This document shows positions 5,971-24,283 of a DNA stretch of 24,283 bases, one piece after another. The notes under the pieces were generated by a model. That model saw nothing but the letters and a program-made list of their open reading frames with translations, ran no database searches and was not told the origin of the DNA. A program made the translations under genes and the position numbers. Numbering within the stretch: the first letter of the stretch is position 1; every line of letters begins with the position of its first letter. The stretch covers positions 1-24,283 of the IMG/VR virus record IMGVR_UViG_3300025372_000044; one strand, 5' to 3'. The stretch is from a virus. Lineage: Duplodnaviria > Caudoviricetes.

Positions 5971-6281
5971 AAGTCATCCTGACTGATAGGTCTAAAAACT
6001 CTACTTCGAGTTATCTCAAAGCATTCGTTGAAGACTGCGTCTGAGAGAAGCTGCTGAGCCTTCTTCTGGTTAAATCGCTTGGAATCAACATAATCCCACT
6101 TCAGTACCGGAACGCCGTTGACTGTGGCCATGACATTATCACCAAGCCCCGACTCCAGGTGTGATCTTGCAATGTCGGCGCGTTCAGTTAAATCCTTGAT
6201 CTGCGCCTTGAGATTGTTGTATTCGGTTAGCCATCCAGCCAAGTGTGGTGGAAGTTCTAACGCATCATTGAGTTCTGACAT
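5967..6281 (-). CDS. Hypothetical protein (coiled coil + beta hairpin)
   Basis: 104-aa ORF with GGGGAC SD; overlaps the exonuclease start. Confidence 0.75.
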   Translation of the reverse strand: MSELNDALELPPHLAGWLTEYNNLKAQIKDLTERADIARSHLESGLGDNVMATVNGVPVLKWDYVDSKRFNQKKAQQLLSDAVFNECFEITRSRVFRPISQDDL

Positions 6282-8217: not shown

Positions 8218-8766
8218 CTAATCGCTCTCTGTGGCCAATTCTCCGCTGATTGCGAGGTATGCAGCACCATCGACGAAGCTGTCGAGGTGGGTTGGGGTTT
8301 CGATAAGTCGGGCAACCTTGACCTGAGCCATGCAGAGGGCTACCTGGGCAGGTGTCACCGGATGTTCAAGCACGATCGACCAAAGAGCTGCGATGCGCTC
8401 GTGATTGGTCTTGGGTGTGCCGTAGTTCTTGTCTCGGTCGCCATGTGTGAGTCGGTTGGCTTCGTCGAGGATTTCCTTGCGTTTCATCTTTGCCCCCTGG
8501 TCGTCTTTATTGCCTTTGGCTAAATTGCAGTCCGAGCATAGTGCTTGGAGATTGCTTTCATCGTTGGAGCCGCCTTTAGATAGCGGGACGATGTGGTCGA
8601 TATGTGGTTCGACATGAAATAGGCTGGCGTCACAATGCTGACACCTGAAACCCGAAGAAGCCAGCACCCGAAGTCTTGTCGTTTGTGGAAACGAAATTCG
8701 AGTCGACTGTGCTGGCTCCTTGCCGGATTTTTTGAGTAAAGCTTTGATATCCGAACGAAGTGTCAT
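8218..8766 (-). CDS. HNH endonuclease fused in frame to a DUF6378-like helical domain
   Basis: CQHC..HIDHIVPLSKGGSNDESNLQALCSDCN..K, then MKRKEILDEA..GDRDKNYG..NHERIAALWS..KVARL..HLDSFVDGAAY. Confidence 0.8.
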   Translation of the reverse strand: MTLRSDIKALLKKSGKEPAQSTRISFPQTTRLRVLASSGFRCQHCDASLFHVEPHIDHIVPLSKGGSNDESNLQALCSDCNLAKGNKDDQGAKMKRKEILDEANRLTHGDRDKNYGTPKTNHERIAALWSIVLEHPVTPAQVALCMAQVKVARLIETPTHLDSFVDGAAYLAISGELATESD

Positions 8767-18518: not shown

Positions 18519-19577
18519 TCAGCTCCTTAATTGATACCAGCCACCATCCCACAATGTTAGCAGTCGCTCGAAGTAGGCCTCGTACTGTGGCCCAATGACA
18601 TCGAGAGAATATCTTGACTTTGCGTGATCGCTAATTGCTTTTCTGTCTAGTGTTTTGACTTTTTCTGCGGCGTCGCAGAATTCTTGTAAAGTCCGGCAGC
18701 GATAACCAGTAACGCCGTTTGGATTGGTTTCGGTGAAAGCGCCCCAATCGGTTGTGATCGTCGGCGTTCCGCACGCTTGGGATTCGATAGCCACGTTTCC
18801 GAAAGGCTCGATGTAGAGAGTAGGAGCGAATGTTGCTACCGCCTTTCCCATCAATTCTGCCCGTTCTTCGGGTCCGACTGAGCCGATGAATTCGCCGTAG
18901 CCTTTGCCTTCACCTGGACCAGCAAGGATCAGCCGCTTGCCTAGTCGCTCGCAGACTTCTTGAGCGATTGCGTAACCTTTGCGGTCGATGATGCGGCCGA
19001 TGTAGAGGTAATAGTCGCCAGAGCCGTCGCCTAGCGGGAACCAGTCAGGCTCGAAGTAGCCAGGAATGACAACATCGTAGAACTTGCCATCGATCGCCGT
19101 CGGATTGTTGTAGGCGGCATAGATTGAGTGCATCCACGCGTAAGACTCGAACACGCGGTATTGACTGAAGACTCCCCCATAACCGACGCCGAATTCGACC
19201 GTCATGTGGGACGGGAAAACGTCAGCAACCGGCTTGTGTGAATAACCGCCGATAGCGCAGATAAAATCTTTAGGTTGTAGGCGCTTGCCTAATTCGGTGA
19301 TGATGTTCGCGTTGAAAATCTGCCAATGTGGGGAGTCTTGGTCCCAAGTGGTCGTGGTGTAGTGCTGATCGCCAACCGCTTCTTGTCTTTCGGCTTCGGT
19401 GATGCAGGTGACTAGCTCGGTGACTGGCGCTGTGGTTTCCTCGCCAGCATAGAGGATGACTTCGTGACCTAGGTTGGTCATCATGATGCAGAACCGGCGA
19501 ACCTTCTCGGTGAAAGCGCAGCCAGCGAACTCTGGCGTGACCTGCGTGTGTGGAAGTGCTAAGACGTGAAAGCGCAT
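18519..19577 (-). CDS. Glycosyltransferase, GT-B fold (GT4-like)
   Basis: YIGRIIDRKG and EPFGNVAIESQACGTP (E-x7-E). Confidence 0.9.
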   Translation of the reverse strand: MRFHVLALPHTQVTPEFAGCAFTEKVRRFCIMMTNLGHEVILYAGEETTAPVTELVTCITEAERQEAVGDQHYTTTTWDQDSPHWQIFNANIITELGKRLQPKDFICAIGGYSHKPVADVFPSHMTVEFGVGYGGVFSQYRVFESYAWMHSIYAAYNNPTAIDGKFYDVVIPGYFEPDWFPLGDGSGDYYLYIGRIIDRKGYAIAQEVCERLGKRLILAGPGEGKGYGEFIGSVGPEERAELMGKAVATFAPTLYIEPFGNVAIESQACGTPTITTDWGAFTETNPNGVTGYRCRTLQEFCDAAEKVKTLDRKAISDHAKSRYSLDVIGPQYEAYFERLLTLWDGGWYQLRS

Positions 19578-19585
19578 GAATCCCC

Positions 19586-20389
19586 CTAGATCATGTCGAC
19601 GAGCGAGCGTGTCCTACCTTGCGAGAGTTGAGTATAGACCTGCGTGGTTGCCACCGATGAATGGCGCATCAAGTCTCGGACTGCCAATAGATCGCCGTCG
19701 GACTTTTCAAGCATCGTCGTGGCAAAGTAGTGGCGCAAAGAGTGGAAGTGCTTGGCGTTAGGTCCGAGAACGCGGCGCATTTCGTCGGCTGCCTTCTTGG
19801 AGAACTTGTTAGGGTCGATCTTCCAGAGTGGTCCGAGCGTGTTGTAGCTCTGGATTGTCTCGGCGACCTTGGCTGAAACTGGGATGACCAGGTCGGTCTT
19901 GCCTTTGCCGATAACCCGCAAGGAATACCCGCCGTTATCTGTGATCAGATCAGCGCCTTCGATCTTGGCGACTTCGTGCGCTCGCAGACCTGCCATTCCA
20001 CCCAGGATGAACCAGTCGCGATAAGGCTTTGGCGATTCTGCCAGCAGCTTCTCGAATTCGGCCTTGGTGACGGGCTTGGGTACGCCGCGACCTGCTTTCA
20101 CCCTTGGCAAGTCCTCGGCTGGGTTGTTGCCGTTGACGAGGTTCATCTTGTTGAGGTGTTTATAGATCGAGCGCAACCTGGAGACATAGTTGGCTTTGGT
20201 CGATTGCTTGGTGGCTGATAGGACAACCTTCTCCAAGTCCTGAACTGTGGCCAGCGCCGGATGGACGCCTATGCGCCGGATGATCTGCCAATCGGTGCGG
20301 ATGACATAGGGGCTGAAGCCCGAGGTGTCGTAGCGGTTTTTCAGCTGACGGTATATCTCGTCAAGAGGTATCAGTTCCATGCTTGACAA
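19586..20389 (-). CDS. Tyrosine recombinase (XerC/D-like size; true start may be ATG 20380)
   Basis: Complete catalytic set: GLR (R), GKGK (K), HSLRH (H-x-x-R), MRHSS (H), TTQVY (Y); no N-terminal arm-binding extension. Confidence 0.93.
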   Translation of the reverse strand: MSSMELIPLDEIYRQLKNRYDTSGFSPYVIRTDWQIIRRIGVHPALATVQDLEKVVLSATKQSTKANYVSRLRSIYKHLNKMNLVNGNNPAEDLPRVKAGRGVPKPVTKAEFEKLLAESPKPYRDWFILGGMAGLRAHEVAKIEGADLITDNGGYSLRVIGKGKTDLVIPVSAKVAETIQSYNTLGPLWKIDPNKFSKKAADEMRRVLGPNAKHFHSLRHYFATTMLEKSDGDLLAVRDLMRHSSVATTQVYTQLSQGRTRSLVDMI

Positions 20390-20417
20390 GTTAGCACCTT
20401 TCGATCAGCTACGCCAA
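20381..20417 (-). promoter_or_regulatory. Putative leaderless promoter of the recombinase
   Basis: TTGGCG (20412-20417)-N18-TAACTT (20388-20393, TG-extended)-N7-ATG (20380). Confidence 0.5.
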
Positions 20418-20582
20418 ACTCTCTGTGGAGTTAGCCTGTGGGGCTGAGTTGGCTGCAAGTGTGCTAGATGCTTGAATTGCATCGTAGGTAGATTTGAGCA
20501 TGGATGTAAACGAGCCGTCATCATGCGTGATAATTACTGATTCTACGCCTGTTGGGTCTGTAATAGTCGTGATGTTGTCCAT
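20409..20582 (-). CDS. 57-aa fibre-tip partner protein, copy 2 (below ORF track cut-off)
   Basis: MDNITTITDPTGVESVIITHDDGSFTSMLKSTYDAIQASSTLAANSAPQANSTESLA; TAATG overlap with the upstream gene; paralogous to 21623..21784. Confidence 0.85.
   Translation of the reverse strand: MDNITTITDPTGVESVIITHDDGSFTSMLKSTYDAIQASSTLAANSAPQANSTESLA
20410..20436. other. Candidate recombination site A (imperfect 9-6-9 dyad)
   Basis: GCCAAACTC-TCTGTG-GAGTTAGCC, arms 7/9 complementary, just upstream of the recombinase. Confidence 0.4.
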
Positions 20583-21622
20583 TATAACTCCGCACTAAAG
20601 CCAAGATAGGAAGAAGAACCAGCCATAAATATGTTATACATCGTATTAGTTGAAAGACCAGATGTACAAGTGACAAACAATGACGGCGATATTGAGGAAC
20701 TTTGGTTGATACTTATTGAGGAAATACCATATCCAGAACCAGAAGAGTTGAGATATACCTGCAAACCGTAATAATCAAGGGCTTGCACAGTCGTTCTCAT
20801 TTGAACTGGTAAGCGAGTAGTCCAATAAAGCTGACTTGAACTATATGCCTGACCATAACCTAAGAACATGCTGGCGTTTTCAGTACCGCTTTGGCGATAG
20901 TAATACCGTTGGCAGAGGGCTAACTCTCCTTGGAATGTGCCACCTGCTCGTGATGCAAGTGTTGCTACTGAACCAATTTCAAGTTGGCAAGCAGATACAT
21001 CAAGATAATCAGCAGCGCCAGCAGTACCAGATGCAGGGCTATAAAGAAAAACTACGCACACACCAACTGCATTGCTTGGGACTGTTCCTGTAACCGTTAC
21101 CTTAGTGTAGGTCGTGTTGAGGTTTGAATTAGCGCTTGAAAGTGTTGTTGATGCGAAGTTAGTTCCCCAACCGCCATTGGCAAAATAAACGCCATCGGTG
21201 GATGTGTTTGCCTGTAACCCAACTGTCACGGATGAAGATGAGAAGTTAGAGCCAGCCCGAACATAGAATGAAAAGGTTACTGTCTGTCCGCGCAAAGGTT
21301 CAGCGTGAAGCGACTCAATGTTTTGACCAAACTGGATGATAGATGTGTCTGTATTACCAGCAGTCCGTTGTGCGCGTAAGCCATAGGAAAGGTTATTAGC
21401 GCCTGTGGTTTGTGACATTGTCATACCAGCCGCGCCACCAAAGCGAGTACCCCACCAATGGTCTGCTACATAAGCAGTTGCCGACTGAGATACTGTTCCG
21501 CTAGTTCCACGCTGCCAAATTTCGTGCAATCCGTTGACCAAAAAGTTCTTACCAGCCACGAACGGCGCTACTGCCCCACCCGTATTCTGCTCAACTGTTG
21601 AAGTTAATTGTGCGCGACTCAT
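20582..21622 (-). CDS. Stand-alone fibre-tip/receptor-binding protein (carbohydrate-binding-like), paralogue of the long fibre's C-terminus
   Basis: IWQRGTS, TFSFY.RAG.NFS, GTAGA.DY, QGEL..C.RYY, YGQAY and YLGFSAEL are shared with 21787..22780. Confidence 0.85.
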   Translation of the reverse strand: MSRAQLTSTVEQNTGGAVAPFVAGKNFLVNGLHEIWQRGTSGTVSQSATAYVADHWWGTRFGGAAGMTMSQTTGANNLSYGLRAQRTAGNTDTSIIQFGQNIESLHAEPLRGQTVTFSFYVRAGSNFSSSSVTVGLQANTSTDGVYFANGGWGTNFASTTLSSANSNLNTTYTKVTVTGTVPSNAVGVCVVFLYSPASGTAGAADYLDVSACQLEIGSVATLASRAGGTFQGELALCQRYYYRQSGTENASMFLGYGQAYSSSQLYWTTRLPVQMRTTVQALDYYGLQVYLNSSGSGYGISSISINQSSSISPSLFVTCTSGLSTNTMYNIFMAGSSSYLGFSAEL

Positions 21623-21810
21623 TTATGCACCTGCCTGTGGTGTTGAAGAGTTGGATGGGAGTGTGCTGGCTTCATAGTCAGCCTTTGGCATAGAGGTAAA
21701 TTCCCCATTGCCTCGATCAATGATGGCGAAAGTTTTTGTTGTGCCATCCATTTGAGTTACATCTAAAAAAGTTACATTTTCCATAATTACAACTCCGCAC
21801 TAAAGCCAAG
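20586..21810. repeat. Exact 20-bp direct repeat at the 3' ends of both fibre-tip genes
   Basis: AACTCCGCACTAAAGCCAAG at 20586-20605 and 21791-21810. Confidence 0.95.
21623..21784 (-). CDS. 53-aa fibre-tip partner protein, copy 1 (below ORF track cut-off)
   Basis: MENVTFLDVTQMDGTTKTFAIIDRGNGEFTSMPKADYEASTLPSNSSTPQAGA; GGAG SD; fills the gap exactly. Confidence 0.85.
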   Translation of the reverse strand: MENVTFLDVTQMDGTTKTFAIIDRGNGEFTSMPKADYEASTLPSNSSTPQAGA

Positions 21811-24283
21811 GTAACCAGCCGTATTGTTGTCGTTCATCAACTCTATTGGGTTGAGAGTGTTTGTTGCTCCGCTACCAATAGTCACAGTAAGGTCGGCAAG
21901 TTTTGTGGTTGATTCAATGTTTATGCTTACTGCGCTAATCGTTCCCAATGCTCCAATACCGTTTTGCTGGATGCGAAGGTTGGCGTAATCTATTGAGGTT
22001 GGGATAACGCGCTTGGTTGTCTTAAATTCAACATTGCAAACCACTTGGCTTGACGAGTTGTTGTAGTAAGCCTGTCCATATTTGCCGTATGCAACGCCCG
22101 GGGTTGATCTTTCATAATAACGCTCGCAGGCATTTAACTCCCCCTGAAGTGTGCTGCCGTTACGGCGTACTGGAAGGGCTACTGAGCCAAGATCAATCTG
22201 AACGCCAGTCACTTCAAAATAATCGTTAGCGCCAGCAGTACCAGTTGGAGCATACGAGAACACAGGAGCGAGTTGCTGAGAGGTTGTTGGAACTGTTCCT
22301 GTATATGTGAATCTCTGCCAAGTGGTTGTAAGGGTTGCGTTGTTATTGACAACAGAACCAGTAAAACCGCTATAAGGGCTTTGGTCTACTCCAGTTGAAT
22401 AACTGATAGCCGCGTTGAGGATATTGCTAGTTGCTGAGAAGTTAGCGCCAGCGCGAGCATAGAACGAGAAGGTAATCGTTTTTCCTGTGAATGGAATAGA
22501 GTTTACTGTTTCAAGGGCATTGGTCAGATAGAGAGTGCCAGTTGTGGATGAACCGCTATTGCGCTGAATACGCCCACAATACTGAACATTTGGAAGGTTA
22601 GTTGTATCGCCTGTGGATTGGCGTGAAACGGTAATCGCTCCGCTAAATTGGTAATTCTGCCAACGGTCAGCGTTGTAGCCTAAACCAGCCGTTGAAGAGT
22701 TAGCGCTACCTGAGGTGCCTCTTTGCCATATATCAAAACACGAATTTATGACTGGGTTGGCTAGGGTTGTTCCAGCCGACCACGATACGCCTGTGCTAGC
22801 AGAAGAGTTTGCCACGAGTGTTGAGCCGTCAGCTCCGACATTGAGTGCGGTTTCACTTCCGGATCCGGTTCCAACCAGGATGTCGCCCTTGGCTGTGAAT
22901 TGGGAGATAGGAATTGCGTTGGCTACTGCGAAGCTGTTAGGTGAAGCGACAACTGCGCTATCGCCAGCAACCAAGGCAGTCAATCCGGTGATCGATGTGC
23001 CAGTCGTTGCGGTGTAATCAGTTCCGCGCACCAAGCGAACGCCGTTGATGTAGACCTCTTCGGCTCCGACTGTATAGGTCAATGATGTTGAGAATCCGTC
23101 GGTTCCTGACAATGAGGTTTCGCCGCCGGTTGCTGTATAACGCCAAGTCTGTACGGAAACCGATCCGCTAGGTCCTGTCGCTCCAGTTGCACCTGTGGCT
23201 CCGACTGGGCCAGTTGCTCCAGTTGGACCTGTGGCTCCGGTTGCGCCGACTGCTCCGTTGCTTCCAGCTGCGCCAGTTCCACCAGTTCCACCGGTTCCAC
23301 CTGTCGCTCCGACTGGACCCGTTGGACCAGTTGGACCCGTTGCGCCAGTTGCGCCGACAGTTCCGTTTGAACCTGCTGCTCCGGATGCACCTGTGCCACC
23401 GGTTCCACCAGTTCCACCAGTTCCACCAGTTCCACCAGTTCCACCTGTGCCGCCGGTTGCTCCGGTTGGGCCTGTGGCTCCTGTGGGACCAGTTGCTCCG
23501 GTTGCTCCAGCTGCGCCGTTTGATCCGGCTGGACCTGTGGCTCCAGTTGCACCCGCTGGACCTGTGGCTCCGGTTGCGCCAGTTGCTCCGTTGGCTCCGT
23601 TAGAACCTGAAGCACCAGTCGCGCCAGTTGCGCCGATTAATCCTGCGACTGCGAAATTCCAGATTGATTGAGCGCCAGAGCCGCTTGTTGTATCAACATT
23701 CAAAACCAAAGTGGTTGAGTTGATCGAAGTGATAACACCTTCCATCCAGTTCGTTGGCGATACTGGGTAAATGGCGCGGATTCGTTGTCCGACGATGAAG
23801 GCACCTTGGTAGGAACCTGCCAAAGTAAATGTCTGTGATCCTGTGCCAATGGTGACACTTGTCAATGAAGCGACGCCAGAGTACCCGGTTCCAGTTGGAC
23901 CAGTTGCTCCCGTCGCACCCGTCGCACCTGTGGCTCCAGTTGCGCCAGCGGCTCCAGCTGCGCCAGAAGCACCAGCGGCACCAGAAGCACCTGCGGGACC
24001 TGTTGCACCAGTTGGACCAGTCGCTCCGGTTGCGCCATTGGCTCCGTTAGCGCCTGAAGCACCTGCGGGACCTGTGGCTCCGGTGACACCTGCTGGACCT
24101 GTCGCACCAGTCGCGCCCGTTGGTCCTGTCTGACCGATTGGACCTGTTGCACCCGTCTGACCGATCGGACCAGTTGCGCCAGTAGCACCGACTGAACCTG
24201 TAGCACCGACAGCACCGACAGCACCGTCAAGGTTGACTGTCCAAGATGTGAATGTGCCAGTTCCTAGCGTCTTGGTGACATTG
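21787..24283 (-). CDS. Collagen-like fibre protein with carbohydrate-binding-like tip, 5'-truncated by the window
   Basis: The frame stays open from 24282 through the track's TTG at 23865; two G-X-Y blocks alternate with globular domains; tip domain after [11 protein letters not shown]. Confidence 0.9.
22786..22813. other. Candidate recombination site B at the shaft/tip junction
   Basis: TACGCC-N13-GAGTTTGCC versus TACGCC-N12-GAGTTAGCC at site A, same orientation. Confidence 0.3.
23164..24225 (-). repeat. Gly-X-Y (GAT/GPT/GGT) coding repeats
   Basis: Blocks at about 23164-23643 and 23884-24225; exact 9-bp tandem GTTCCACCA (~4.9 copies) at 23402-23445. Confidence 0.95.

Follow-up and report, generated by a model that had tools for sequence, protein, structure and literature searches.

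The fibre region of a 24,283-nt (24.3-kb) virus record (IMGVR_UViG_3300025372_000044; the whole stretch is called the window here), part of a siphovirus-like genome with its main genes all on the minus strand, contains six short sites in the same orientation, each composed of an arm, a 6-nt spacer and a second arm, and each with a different spacer. They lie upstream of the gene for an arm-less tyrosine recombinase, with which the genes for the fibre and its first tip, the first partner, the second tip and the second partner are all co-oriented (Table 1). In related loci the sites occur in a fixed order, the segments between them form a slot-wise mosaic, and identity breaks sharply at the sites. 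We think it likely that these sites are a keyed array at which the adjacent recombinase crosses the genomes of co-infecting phages, swapping predicted host-recognition domains. Catalysis by the recombinase of the window, co-infection and an effect on host range are what we infer from this pattern. An earlier prediction for this sequence, the original prediction below, had described an intact, co-oriented recombinase, two tips ending in GFSAEL and two small partners at these places; the open reading frame (ORF) coordinates, the PF00589 match and the invariant R-K-H-R-H-Y residues bear this out.

Sites, spacers and slots

The window by itself does not single out the sites. General repeat finding revealed only the similarity between the two tips, and the five matches to a loose site pattern, a number reached by 8 of 100 shuffles, are not significant; the case therefore rests on relatives. 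A scan of IMG/VR provided 80 loci with recombinases 78–100% identical to that of the window (the best 80 of 86). Over 81 sequences, the motif (A/C)ACTY-N6-(GAGTT or AACTC), derived from the edges of blocks shared among these same loci, has 274 matches in the 154 kb upstream of the recombinase versus 3 in 505 kb of other sequence on that strand. The arms of the sites are ACACTY and GAGTT or AACTC. The matches fall into seven spacer classes, S1 to S7, with slot-specific spacers and a constant order. S1 is located in the sequence for TLVANS, S2 and S4 in that for TLQGEL of tips 1 and 2, and S3 and S5 in the partner tails; S6 is optional and lies between cargo genes, and in most loci the recombinase is preceded by S7 or S6. 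Exceptions to the order are some cargo regions with an additional S5-like site and L069 with two S6-like sites, and some relatives are one-tip loci. Four of the sites in the window are at predicted domain borders in the tip and partner genes.

Table 1. Fibre genes, recombination sites and recombinase of the window, with the adjoining downstream gene.
Feature	Position	Strand	Remarks
Collagen-repeat fibre with fused tip 1	21787..24283	-	PF01391 3e-29, PHROG tail-fibre families; 5' end cut by window; ends GFSAEL
S1	22802..22823	-	CAACACTC.GTGGCA.AACTCTTC; encodes TLVANS, between constant fibre part and tip 1
S2	22133..22154	-	GCACACTT.CAGGGG.GAGTTAAA; encodes TLQGEL in tip 1
Partner 1, 53 aa	21623..21784	-	same family as partner 2 (alignment)
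S3	21645..21666	-	GCACACTC.CCATCC.AACTCTTC; partner 1 tail, spacer at residue 43
Free-standing tip 2, 346 aa	20582..21622	-	phrog_4492 tail fibre; ends GFSAEL
S4	20919..20940	-	GCACATTC.CAAGGA.GAGTTAGC; encodes TFQGEL at two-domain border of tip 2, spacer at residue 231
Partner 2, 57 aa	20409..20582	-	predicted binder of tip 2 C-terminal domain
S5	20443..20464	-	GCACACTT.GCAGCC.AACTCAGC; partner 2 tail, spacer at residue 43
S7, terminal site	20414..20435	-	GCTAACTC.CACAGA.GAGTTTGG; divergence point from L001, L004, L005 and L063
Arm-less tyrosine recombinase	19586..20380	-	264 aa from ATG 20380; PF00589 1.2e-14, phrog_1
Glycosyltransferase	18519..19577	-	PF00534, phrog_3408; directly downstream of recombinase, context only

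The slots between the sites hold, as far as domains can be predicted, a first sugar-binding-like domain (B), the C-terminal domain of tip 1 with its partner (C), the leader and sugar-binding-like domain of tip 2 (D), the C-terminal domain of tip 2 with its partner (E), and optional small cargo genes (F). At 95% identity there are 26 alleles of B in 34 loci, 25 of C in 37, 30 of D in 41, 35 of E in 50 and 18 of F in 31, and their combinations are mixed. Sharing between loci involves 38 same-slot pairs versus 4 cross-slot pairs, the latter from two events. The number of cargo genes between S5 and S7 varies, up to several per locus. In L008, L022, L026, L029, L031, L033 and L069, S5, S6 and S7 serve as points of exchange among lineages for cargo genes of 40–150 aa (one of them GNAT-like by eye) and for shared non-coding stretches.

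Mosaic segments and breakpoints

From about position 20431 downward, the window is matched at 98% identity by five relatives, which diverge from it upstream of that point; the two that are long enough match again from about 22790. Breakpoints had been predicted at 20410–20436 and 22786–22813. The first interval corresponds to S7 (20414–20435), the second overlaps S1 (22802–22823), and identity drops sharply at both. Compared with L063 and L066, the window has segments C, E and F in common and a different D and recombinase. At S2 and S4, divergent sequence gives way to 100% identity, and immediately past S7 the sequences, 100% identical up to there, become unrelated. Between the window and L063, segment C matches at 99.5% over 550 nt, while the recombinases are only 79% identical and a stretch of backbone 68%. 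The window's own lineage is reassorted too: its 12 distinct contigs, in none of which host DNA was found upstream, include the combinations D3+E3, D3+E6 and D4+E3. Single segments bounded by sites also occur in runs other than the one from which the window may come: of their contigs, those of X19 cover segment C whole (21638–22154) and B, D and E hardly at all, those of X5 contain E, C and a variant of B without D, and in X6 and X18 the window's segment C is joined to a different B at S2. Joints in such contigs were also considered as deletions or circles, a reading that was rejected; their sides are short and other alleles lie between conserved sites. That cassettes are swapped was part of the original prediction and is favoured; the two blocks of tip plus partner envisaged as units are not, owing to four internal sites (S2 to S5) that had been missed and that delimit smaller segments.

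Edges of shared blocks (149 distinct ones) coincide with sites in 71 of 88 cases on the left and 45 of 61 on the right, where about 9.5% would be expected. Allele pairs shared on one flank only amount to 129 of 3,520 at the sites (16, 5, 34, 5, 15, 13 and 41 for S1 to S7, with 4 pairs shared on both flanks), compared with 3 of 2,478 when eight internal positions serve as controls (8 shared on both) and 4 of 990 at a point inside the recombinase. In an independent second clade, at about 70% identity, there are 22 such pairs at S1, 3 at S4 and 68 at S7, versus 0–2 at controls. The arms of one-flank pairs often differ while the spacer nearly always agrees: at the polymorphic sites, the spacer is the same in 16/16 pairs at S1 (141/335 for other pairs) and in 41/42 at S7 (472/947 for other pairs). 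The crossover window at S7 could be narrowed to 15 nt, pairs at S2, S4 and S5 are mismatched as close as 1 to 3 nt to the spacer, and in one S5 pair the last mismatch is immediately beside it.

The in-tip sites are also conserved beyond their protein sequence. Their synonymous codons are fixed, with ACA in 71/71, GAG in 70/71 and TTA in 70/71 distinct tips (background frequencies 0.40, 0.26 and 0.12), and the codons of the WQRG motif show no such fixation at the wobble position. The SAEL ends of the tips (20585–20596 and 21790–21801 in the window) carry a GAGTT half-site and codons, AGT GCG GAG, that are strongly biased in all clades; they were considered as an eighth site and rejected, with breaks in 0/930 pairs of the window's clade and 1/946 of the second clade.

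Proposed exchange mechanism

Tyrosine recombinases require matching spacers. Because spacers differ within a genome, a given site would recombine only with its counterpart in another genome, and deletion and inversion within one genome would be rare. A first crossover, at sites with matching spacers, would join two co-infecting genomes; a second one, at another matching site, would exchange the intervening segment, as we suppose by analogy with pdif plasmids. The stored repertoire of tips would then be the phage population and not one genome. If the enzyme acts in this way, the phage directs where it recombines with other phages, at borders that keep domains whole and let the predicted partner travel along, and the assembly breaks of these genomes at the array are explained.

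Several observations weigh against such an exchange. The allele pairs are not independent, the sites are the most conserved DNA of the region and the enrichment of edges at them is partly circular, and 11 of the 16 right edges away from sites are in a conserved leader, 52–146 nt past S3. Sharing to the left of S1 and to the right of S7 is to be expected at any variable island. Counts inside the tips are small (5 pairs each at S2 and S4, the latter with 3 more sharing both flanks), the right arms of S1, S3 and S5 match the inverted left arms poorly, and the SAEL ends show codon bias without breakpoints. Two segments have moved between slots, a GNAT-like cargo gene present in two of them and a C segment recurring as E at 96% identity. 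A near-complete relative, G001, carries S1 twice, the second copy, of identical spacer, being in another fibre-like gene at the other end of its record (L301, G001:1-2500). No co-integrate was seen among the assembled contigs searched. Finally, a tyrosine recombinase is present near none of 20 relatives of the tips that were collected independently of the recombinase (L083–L102), nor in any of five small-phage records, two of them at least 90% complete, including the complete L302 (G006, 16,255 nt). These recombinase-less small phages retain S1-, S4- and S7-like sequences, with 5/136 one-flank pairs at S4; since they keep sites and swap at S4, an adjacent enzyme is not needed. Their sites fit a supply of enzyme in trans, and also homologous recombination at conserved borders. 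No alleles are common to the 20 recombinase-less and the recombinase-bearing loci, the one match, of 139 nt, being outside the tip.

Possible homologous recombination at conserved borders

The linker idea for modular phage evolution regards conserved boundary sequences as recombination points. The sites could be boundaries of this sort, used by homologous or microhomology recombination, with the tyrosine recombinase a bystander or active only at the terminal site. We consider this unlikely, although the small phages just described behave as it would predict, a PD-(D/E)XK exonuclease and a RusA-like resolvase are also encoded in the window (Pfam, PHROGs), some edges are in the conserved leader, and matching spacers are equally expected if homology is needed. 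The narrow crossover interval at S7 and the mismatches so close to the spacers of S2, S4 and S5 are harder to reconcile with it, as are protein motifs that are equally conserved and yield few or no breakpoints. A single arm–spacer–arm plan is found at all sites, including those between genes, and the arms vary symmetrically with the clade of the enzyme, whose sister clade inverts DNA at a homologue of S1 (see below). If site-specific exchange is what occurs, the linker idea becomes testable with one enzyme and 22-nt sites.

Possible insertion and excision

Less probable again is an integron-like platform, in which segments would leave as circles and insert again without strict matching of spacers. 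The varying number of cargo genes between S5 and S7, the two segments found in more than one slot and the one-tip loci could be read in this way, and so could L221, in which 108 nt are duplicated in tandem between two S4-type sites of identical sequence, some 770 to 660 nt upstream of its recombinase. However, repeated identical sites have not built up, the order is fixed, same-slot pairs outnumber cross-slot pairs by the margin given above, and sites of 22 nt are too short for an attC-like hairpin; no clear circle junction was found in the contigs, which drop rare forms. Where the original prediction had allowed insertion, excision or swapping, the single occurrence of each spacer, the fixed order and the same-slot sharing favour swapping.

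The recombinase and lysogeny

The recombinase ORF (19586–20389, minus strand) can be extended to a TTG at 20389 (267 aa); agreement with homologues makes the ATG at 20380 the likely start. The protein is Xer-sized, its length leaving no space for an arm-binding domain, and has a Phage_integrase domain and the catalytic R-K-H-R-H-Y residues, invariant in 10/10 aligned homologues; these are the features of an arm-less tyrosine recombinase. The closest solved structure is 5VFZ, gp33 (E 1e-16), and the nearest named relatives are arm-less integrases of mycobacteriophages and Gordonia phages (27–33% identity). With regard to the IntI-specific insertion in the catalytic domain of integron integrases, the match to IntI4 (2A3V) covers only residues 211–252. 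Searches of INPHARED and of plasmids returned only distant enzymes, at most 33% identical among the phages listed and at most 35% among the plasmids listed, and one weak tip match. A quick recombinase tree has very long outgroup branches and a weak root.

Homologues had been expected to adjoin FSAEL tips consistently. This is so for all 46 close loci with 1.5 kb upstream, as counted with a hidden Markov model built from those same tips, and for 40 of 42 loci of an independent clade at about 70% identity; it fails in two more distant clades (9/55 and 2/11), which carry other fibre-like genes. In L183–L194, at about 63% identity, a perfectly symmetric terminal site, ACACTC.CATTGG.GAGTGT, follows unrelated fibre-like genes.

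It is very improbable that the enzyme is a Brujita-type lysogeny integrase with S7 as attP, placed beside a variable fibre island by chance. Integrases of this type (5VFZ) are its nearest sequence family, at about 30% identity and in the same size class, and arm-less enzymes of this kind integrate phages (10.1101/542381). In contrast to these, the window's recombinase has no adjacent repressor, no junction with host DNA and a long branch to the outgroups: in 32HC a repressor is directly upstream of the integrase, whereas in the close loci of the window a tip takes that place (46/46). HTH_3 was matched in 0/5 near-complete relatives (91–100% complete), each with one tyrosine recombinase. Four of these five records start or stop inside the array or on its edge, S1 being at the far end or slightly inward of it, and the assemblies end in the array and not at host DNA. 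A scan of GTDB, made with two patterns only, found no close relative of the recombinase (best full-length match 28–30%), and no tRNA was found in the window. A role in lysogeny is thus unlikely, as the original prediction had proposed. The absence of a repressor or excisionase that it had noted also holds for the 34 main ORFs scanned with Pfam and PHROGs, out of 165 ORFs of at least 45 aa.

Inversion in a sister clade

In a sister clade (L122–L182), whose recombinases are 52–56% identical to that of the window, both arms are changed, to GCACAATC-N6-GATTGTGC; this motif occurs 156 times in 194 kb of sequence upstream of the recombinase versus 22 times in 384 kb. The homologue of S1, ACACTY.GTAGCG, has the forward orientation within the fibre gene and the reverse one at silent cassettes, and is found on both strands in 32/37 loci. 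L144 and L148 have 732 nt in common at 100% identity and in opposite orientation, one inverted pair. The sister clade is a Rin-like tail-fibre shufflon; the window's clade is not. Because the sister clade inverts at a homologue of S1, this site is probably real. The inverting layout is limited to one subclade in the quick tree (9 rows, support 94), and its nested position is only a hint. In the 4 kb upstream of the recombinase, loci of this clade (e.g., L137, L144 and L148) also carry near-perfect palindromic sites of a second set, whose spacers are different and which are placed at the 3' ends of cassettes.

Although the sister clade of the enzyme has such a shufflon, the possibility that the window's array is another one, caught with all its cassettes in one orientation, is the least probable of all, with 94/94 tip matches on the recombinase strand, no inverted shared blocks among 66 loci of the window's clade and no inverted same-spacer site in the window. 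An inversion shufflon for this clade is refuted unless reads show inverted segments. The earlier claim that the enzyme is not an invertase consequently stands for the window's clade and does not extend to its sister clade.

A wider reading can be put forward tentatively, with the odds somewhat against it: freshwater actinobacterial phages may share the set of keyed sites as a natural cassette-exchange standard, by which fibre domains are shuffled across lineages upon co-infection; recombinase-less 16-kb phages may use the enzyme in trans; and the inversion shufflon may have arisen from the same system in one subclade.

Fibre tips and small partners

The AlphaFold2 model of tip 2 (mean predicted local distance difference test score, pLDDT, 84.9) contains the conserved leader, a beta-sandwich like those of carbohydrate-binding modules (CBMs) at residues ~41–216, a helix at 230–238 and a C-terminal beta domain at 241–343. 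Fold comparisons of the model place the first domain close to CBM4/16/22 modules and the tip as a whole close to phage tail fibres. This likeness in fold and family suggests that the tips are receptor-binding. For partner 2, modelling predicts that residues 7–36 contact the C-terminal domain of tip 2. The modelled complex scores 0.82, the best control 0.50; the mark applied was reached by 116/157 solved pairs and 2/215 mismatched pairs, a calibration only roughly valid here, with alignments of our own making. Contacts agree between runs to at least 90% and the pLDDT of the partner is at least 72, which supports the predicted interaction without proving it. The predicted interface precedes S5, at residue 43, and as it is upstream of the tail site, segments C and E would each carry a domain together with its predicted partner.

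Relation to known systems

Mosaicism of phage fibres is usually ascribed to homologous or illegitimate recombination occurring by chance, and programmed switches are known to flip only tips stored in one genome. Our literature searches, which covered open papers, found no account of a phage system like the one proposed here. Related to Rin-type shufflons, the array seems to operate as pdif exchange does, yet it lacks a defining property of each. The pdif/xrs modules of Acinetobacter Rep_3 plasmids have sites with different 6-nt central regions and no excision within a replicon; matching sites on two replicons recombine into a co-integrate, which is proposed to exchange cassettes when it is resolved at a second pair (10.1101/2024.04.09.588662, PMC5790767). 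The window's clade resembles these modules in its several different central regions and in the exchange between matching ones, for which its evidence is comparative. The pdif modules depend on host XerC/XerD with FtsK, and their sites are often inverted and flank whole genes; in the window, a phage enzyme is adjacent, all sites are direct and in coding sequence at domain borders, and the cargo consists of fibre domains. The window's arms are without the ATAA/TTAT motif given for pdif (10.1101/2024.04.09.588662), and are not of the XerC/XerD type.

The Rin shufflon of Bifidobacterium prophages uses a single 11-bp site, rix, whose copies occur in both orientations, and flips silent tips inside one genome; its authors likewise proposed that the enzyme is supplied in trans, to a second locus (PMC6109161). 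The two systems have in common an arm-less tyrosine recombinase, a receptor-binding protein with constant N-terminus and variable tips, a crossover site inside its gene, and an actinobacterial phage. The window differs by its six different spacers, by the lack of silent or inverted tips and by alleles that come from other genomes. It has the layout of recombinase, fibre and site seen in Rin, Min and Gin shufflons; inverted identical sites are missing, as are inversions among the 66 loci of its clade. The sister clade fits the Rin plan.

In integrons, a recombinase gene stands beside a site and small cargo genes, and this much is also found in the window. Its array differs in having neither attC-like hairpins nor tandem cassettes, and in its unique 22-nt sites of fixed order and slot-faithful sharing of segments. 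Engineered cassette exchange with heterospecific lox or FRT sites is a laboratory design in which different spacers block deletion and allow exchange. The window's array would be a natural counterpart, and its enzyme, if it acts as proposed, a compact recombinase that comes with seven or more natural spacer classes.

Genome setting and host

By Pfam and PHROGs matches, the minus-strand genes of the window include those for the fibre, the recombinase, a glycosyltransferase, a head-tail adaptor, a tail tube, a tape measure, lysis, WhiB and a primase-polymerase. Scans of the window for promoters and terminators gave results at chance level. Because WhiB is encoded in the window, the host may be actinobacterial, and the 24 listed metagenome runs containing the stretch are all from freshwater or lakes (24/24). 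In other lineages the recombinase is followed by genes other than the glycosyltransferase. The fibre–recombinase module (18519–23000) precedes the head-tail adaptor in the window, and in L008, L011 and L063 is found after tail genes or before other genes; since its position differs in this way, the whole module appears to move. Far from the array, at 5997–6012, a 104-aa gene contains a single palindromic match to the site motif, which may be due to chance. A 182-aa ORF at 8218–8766 encodes an HNH endonuclease fused to DUF6378.

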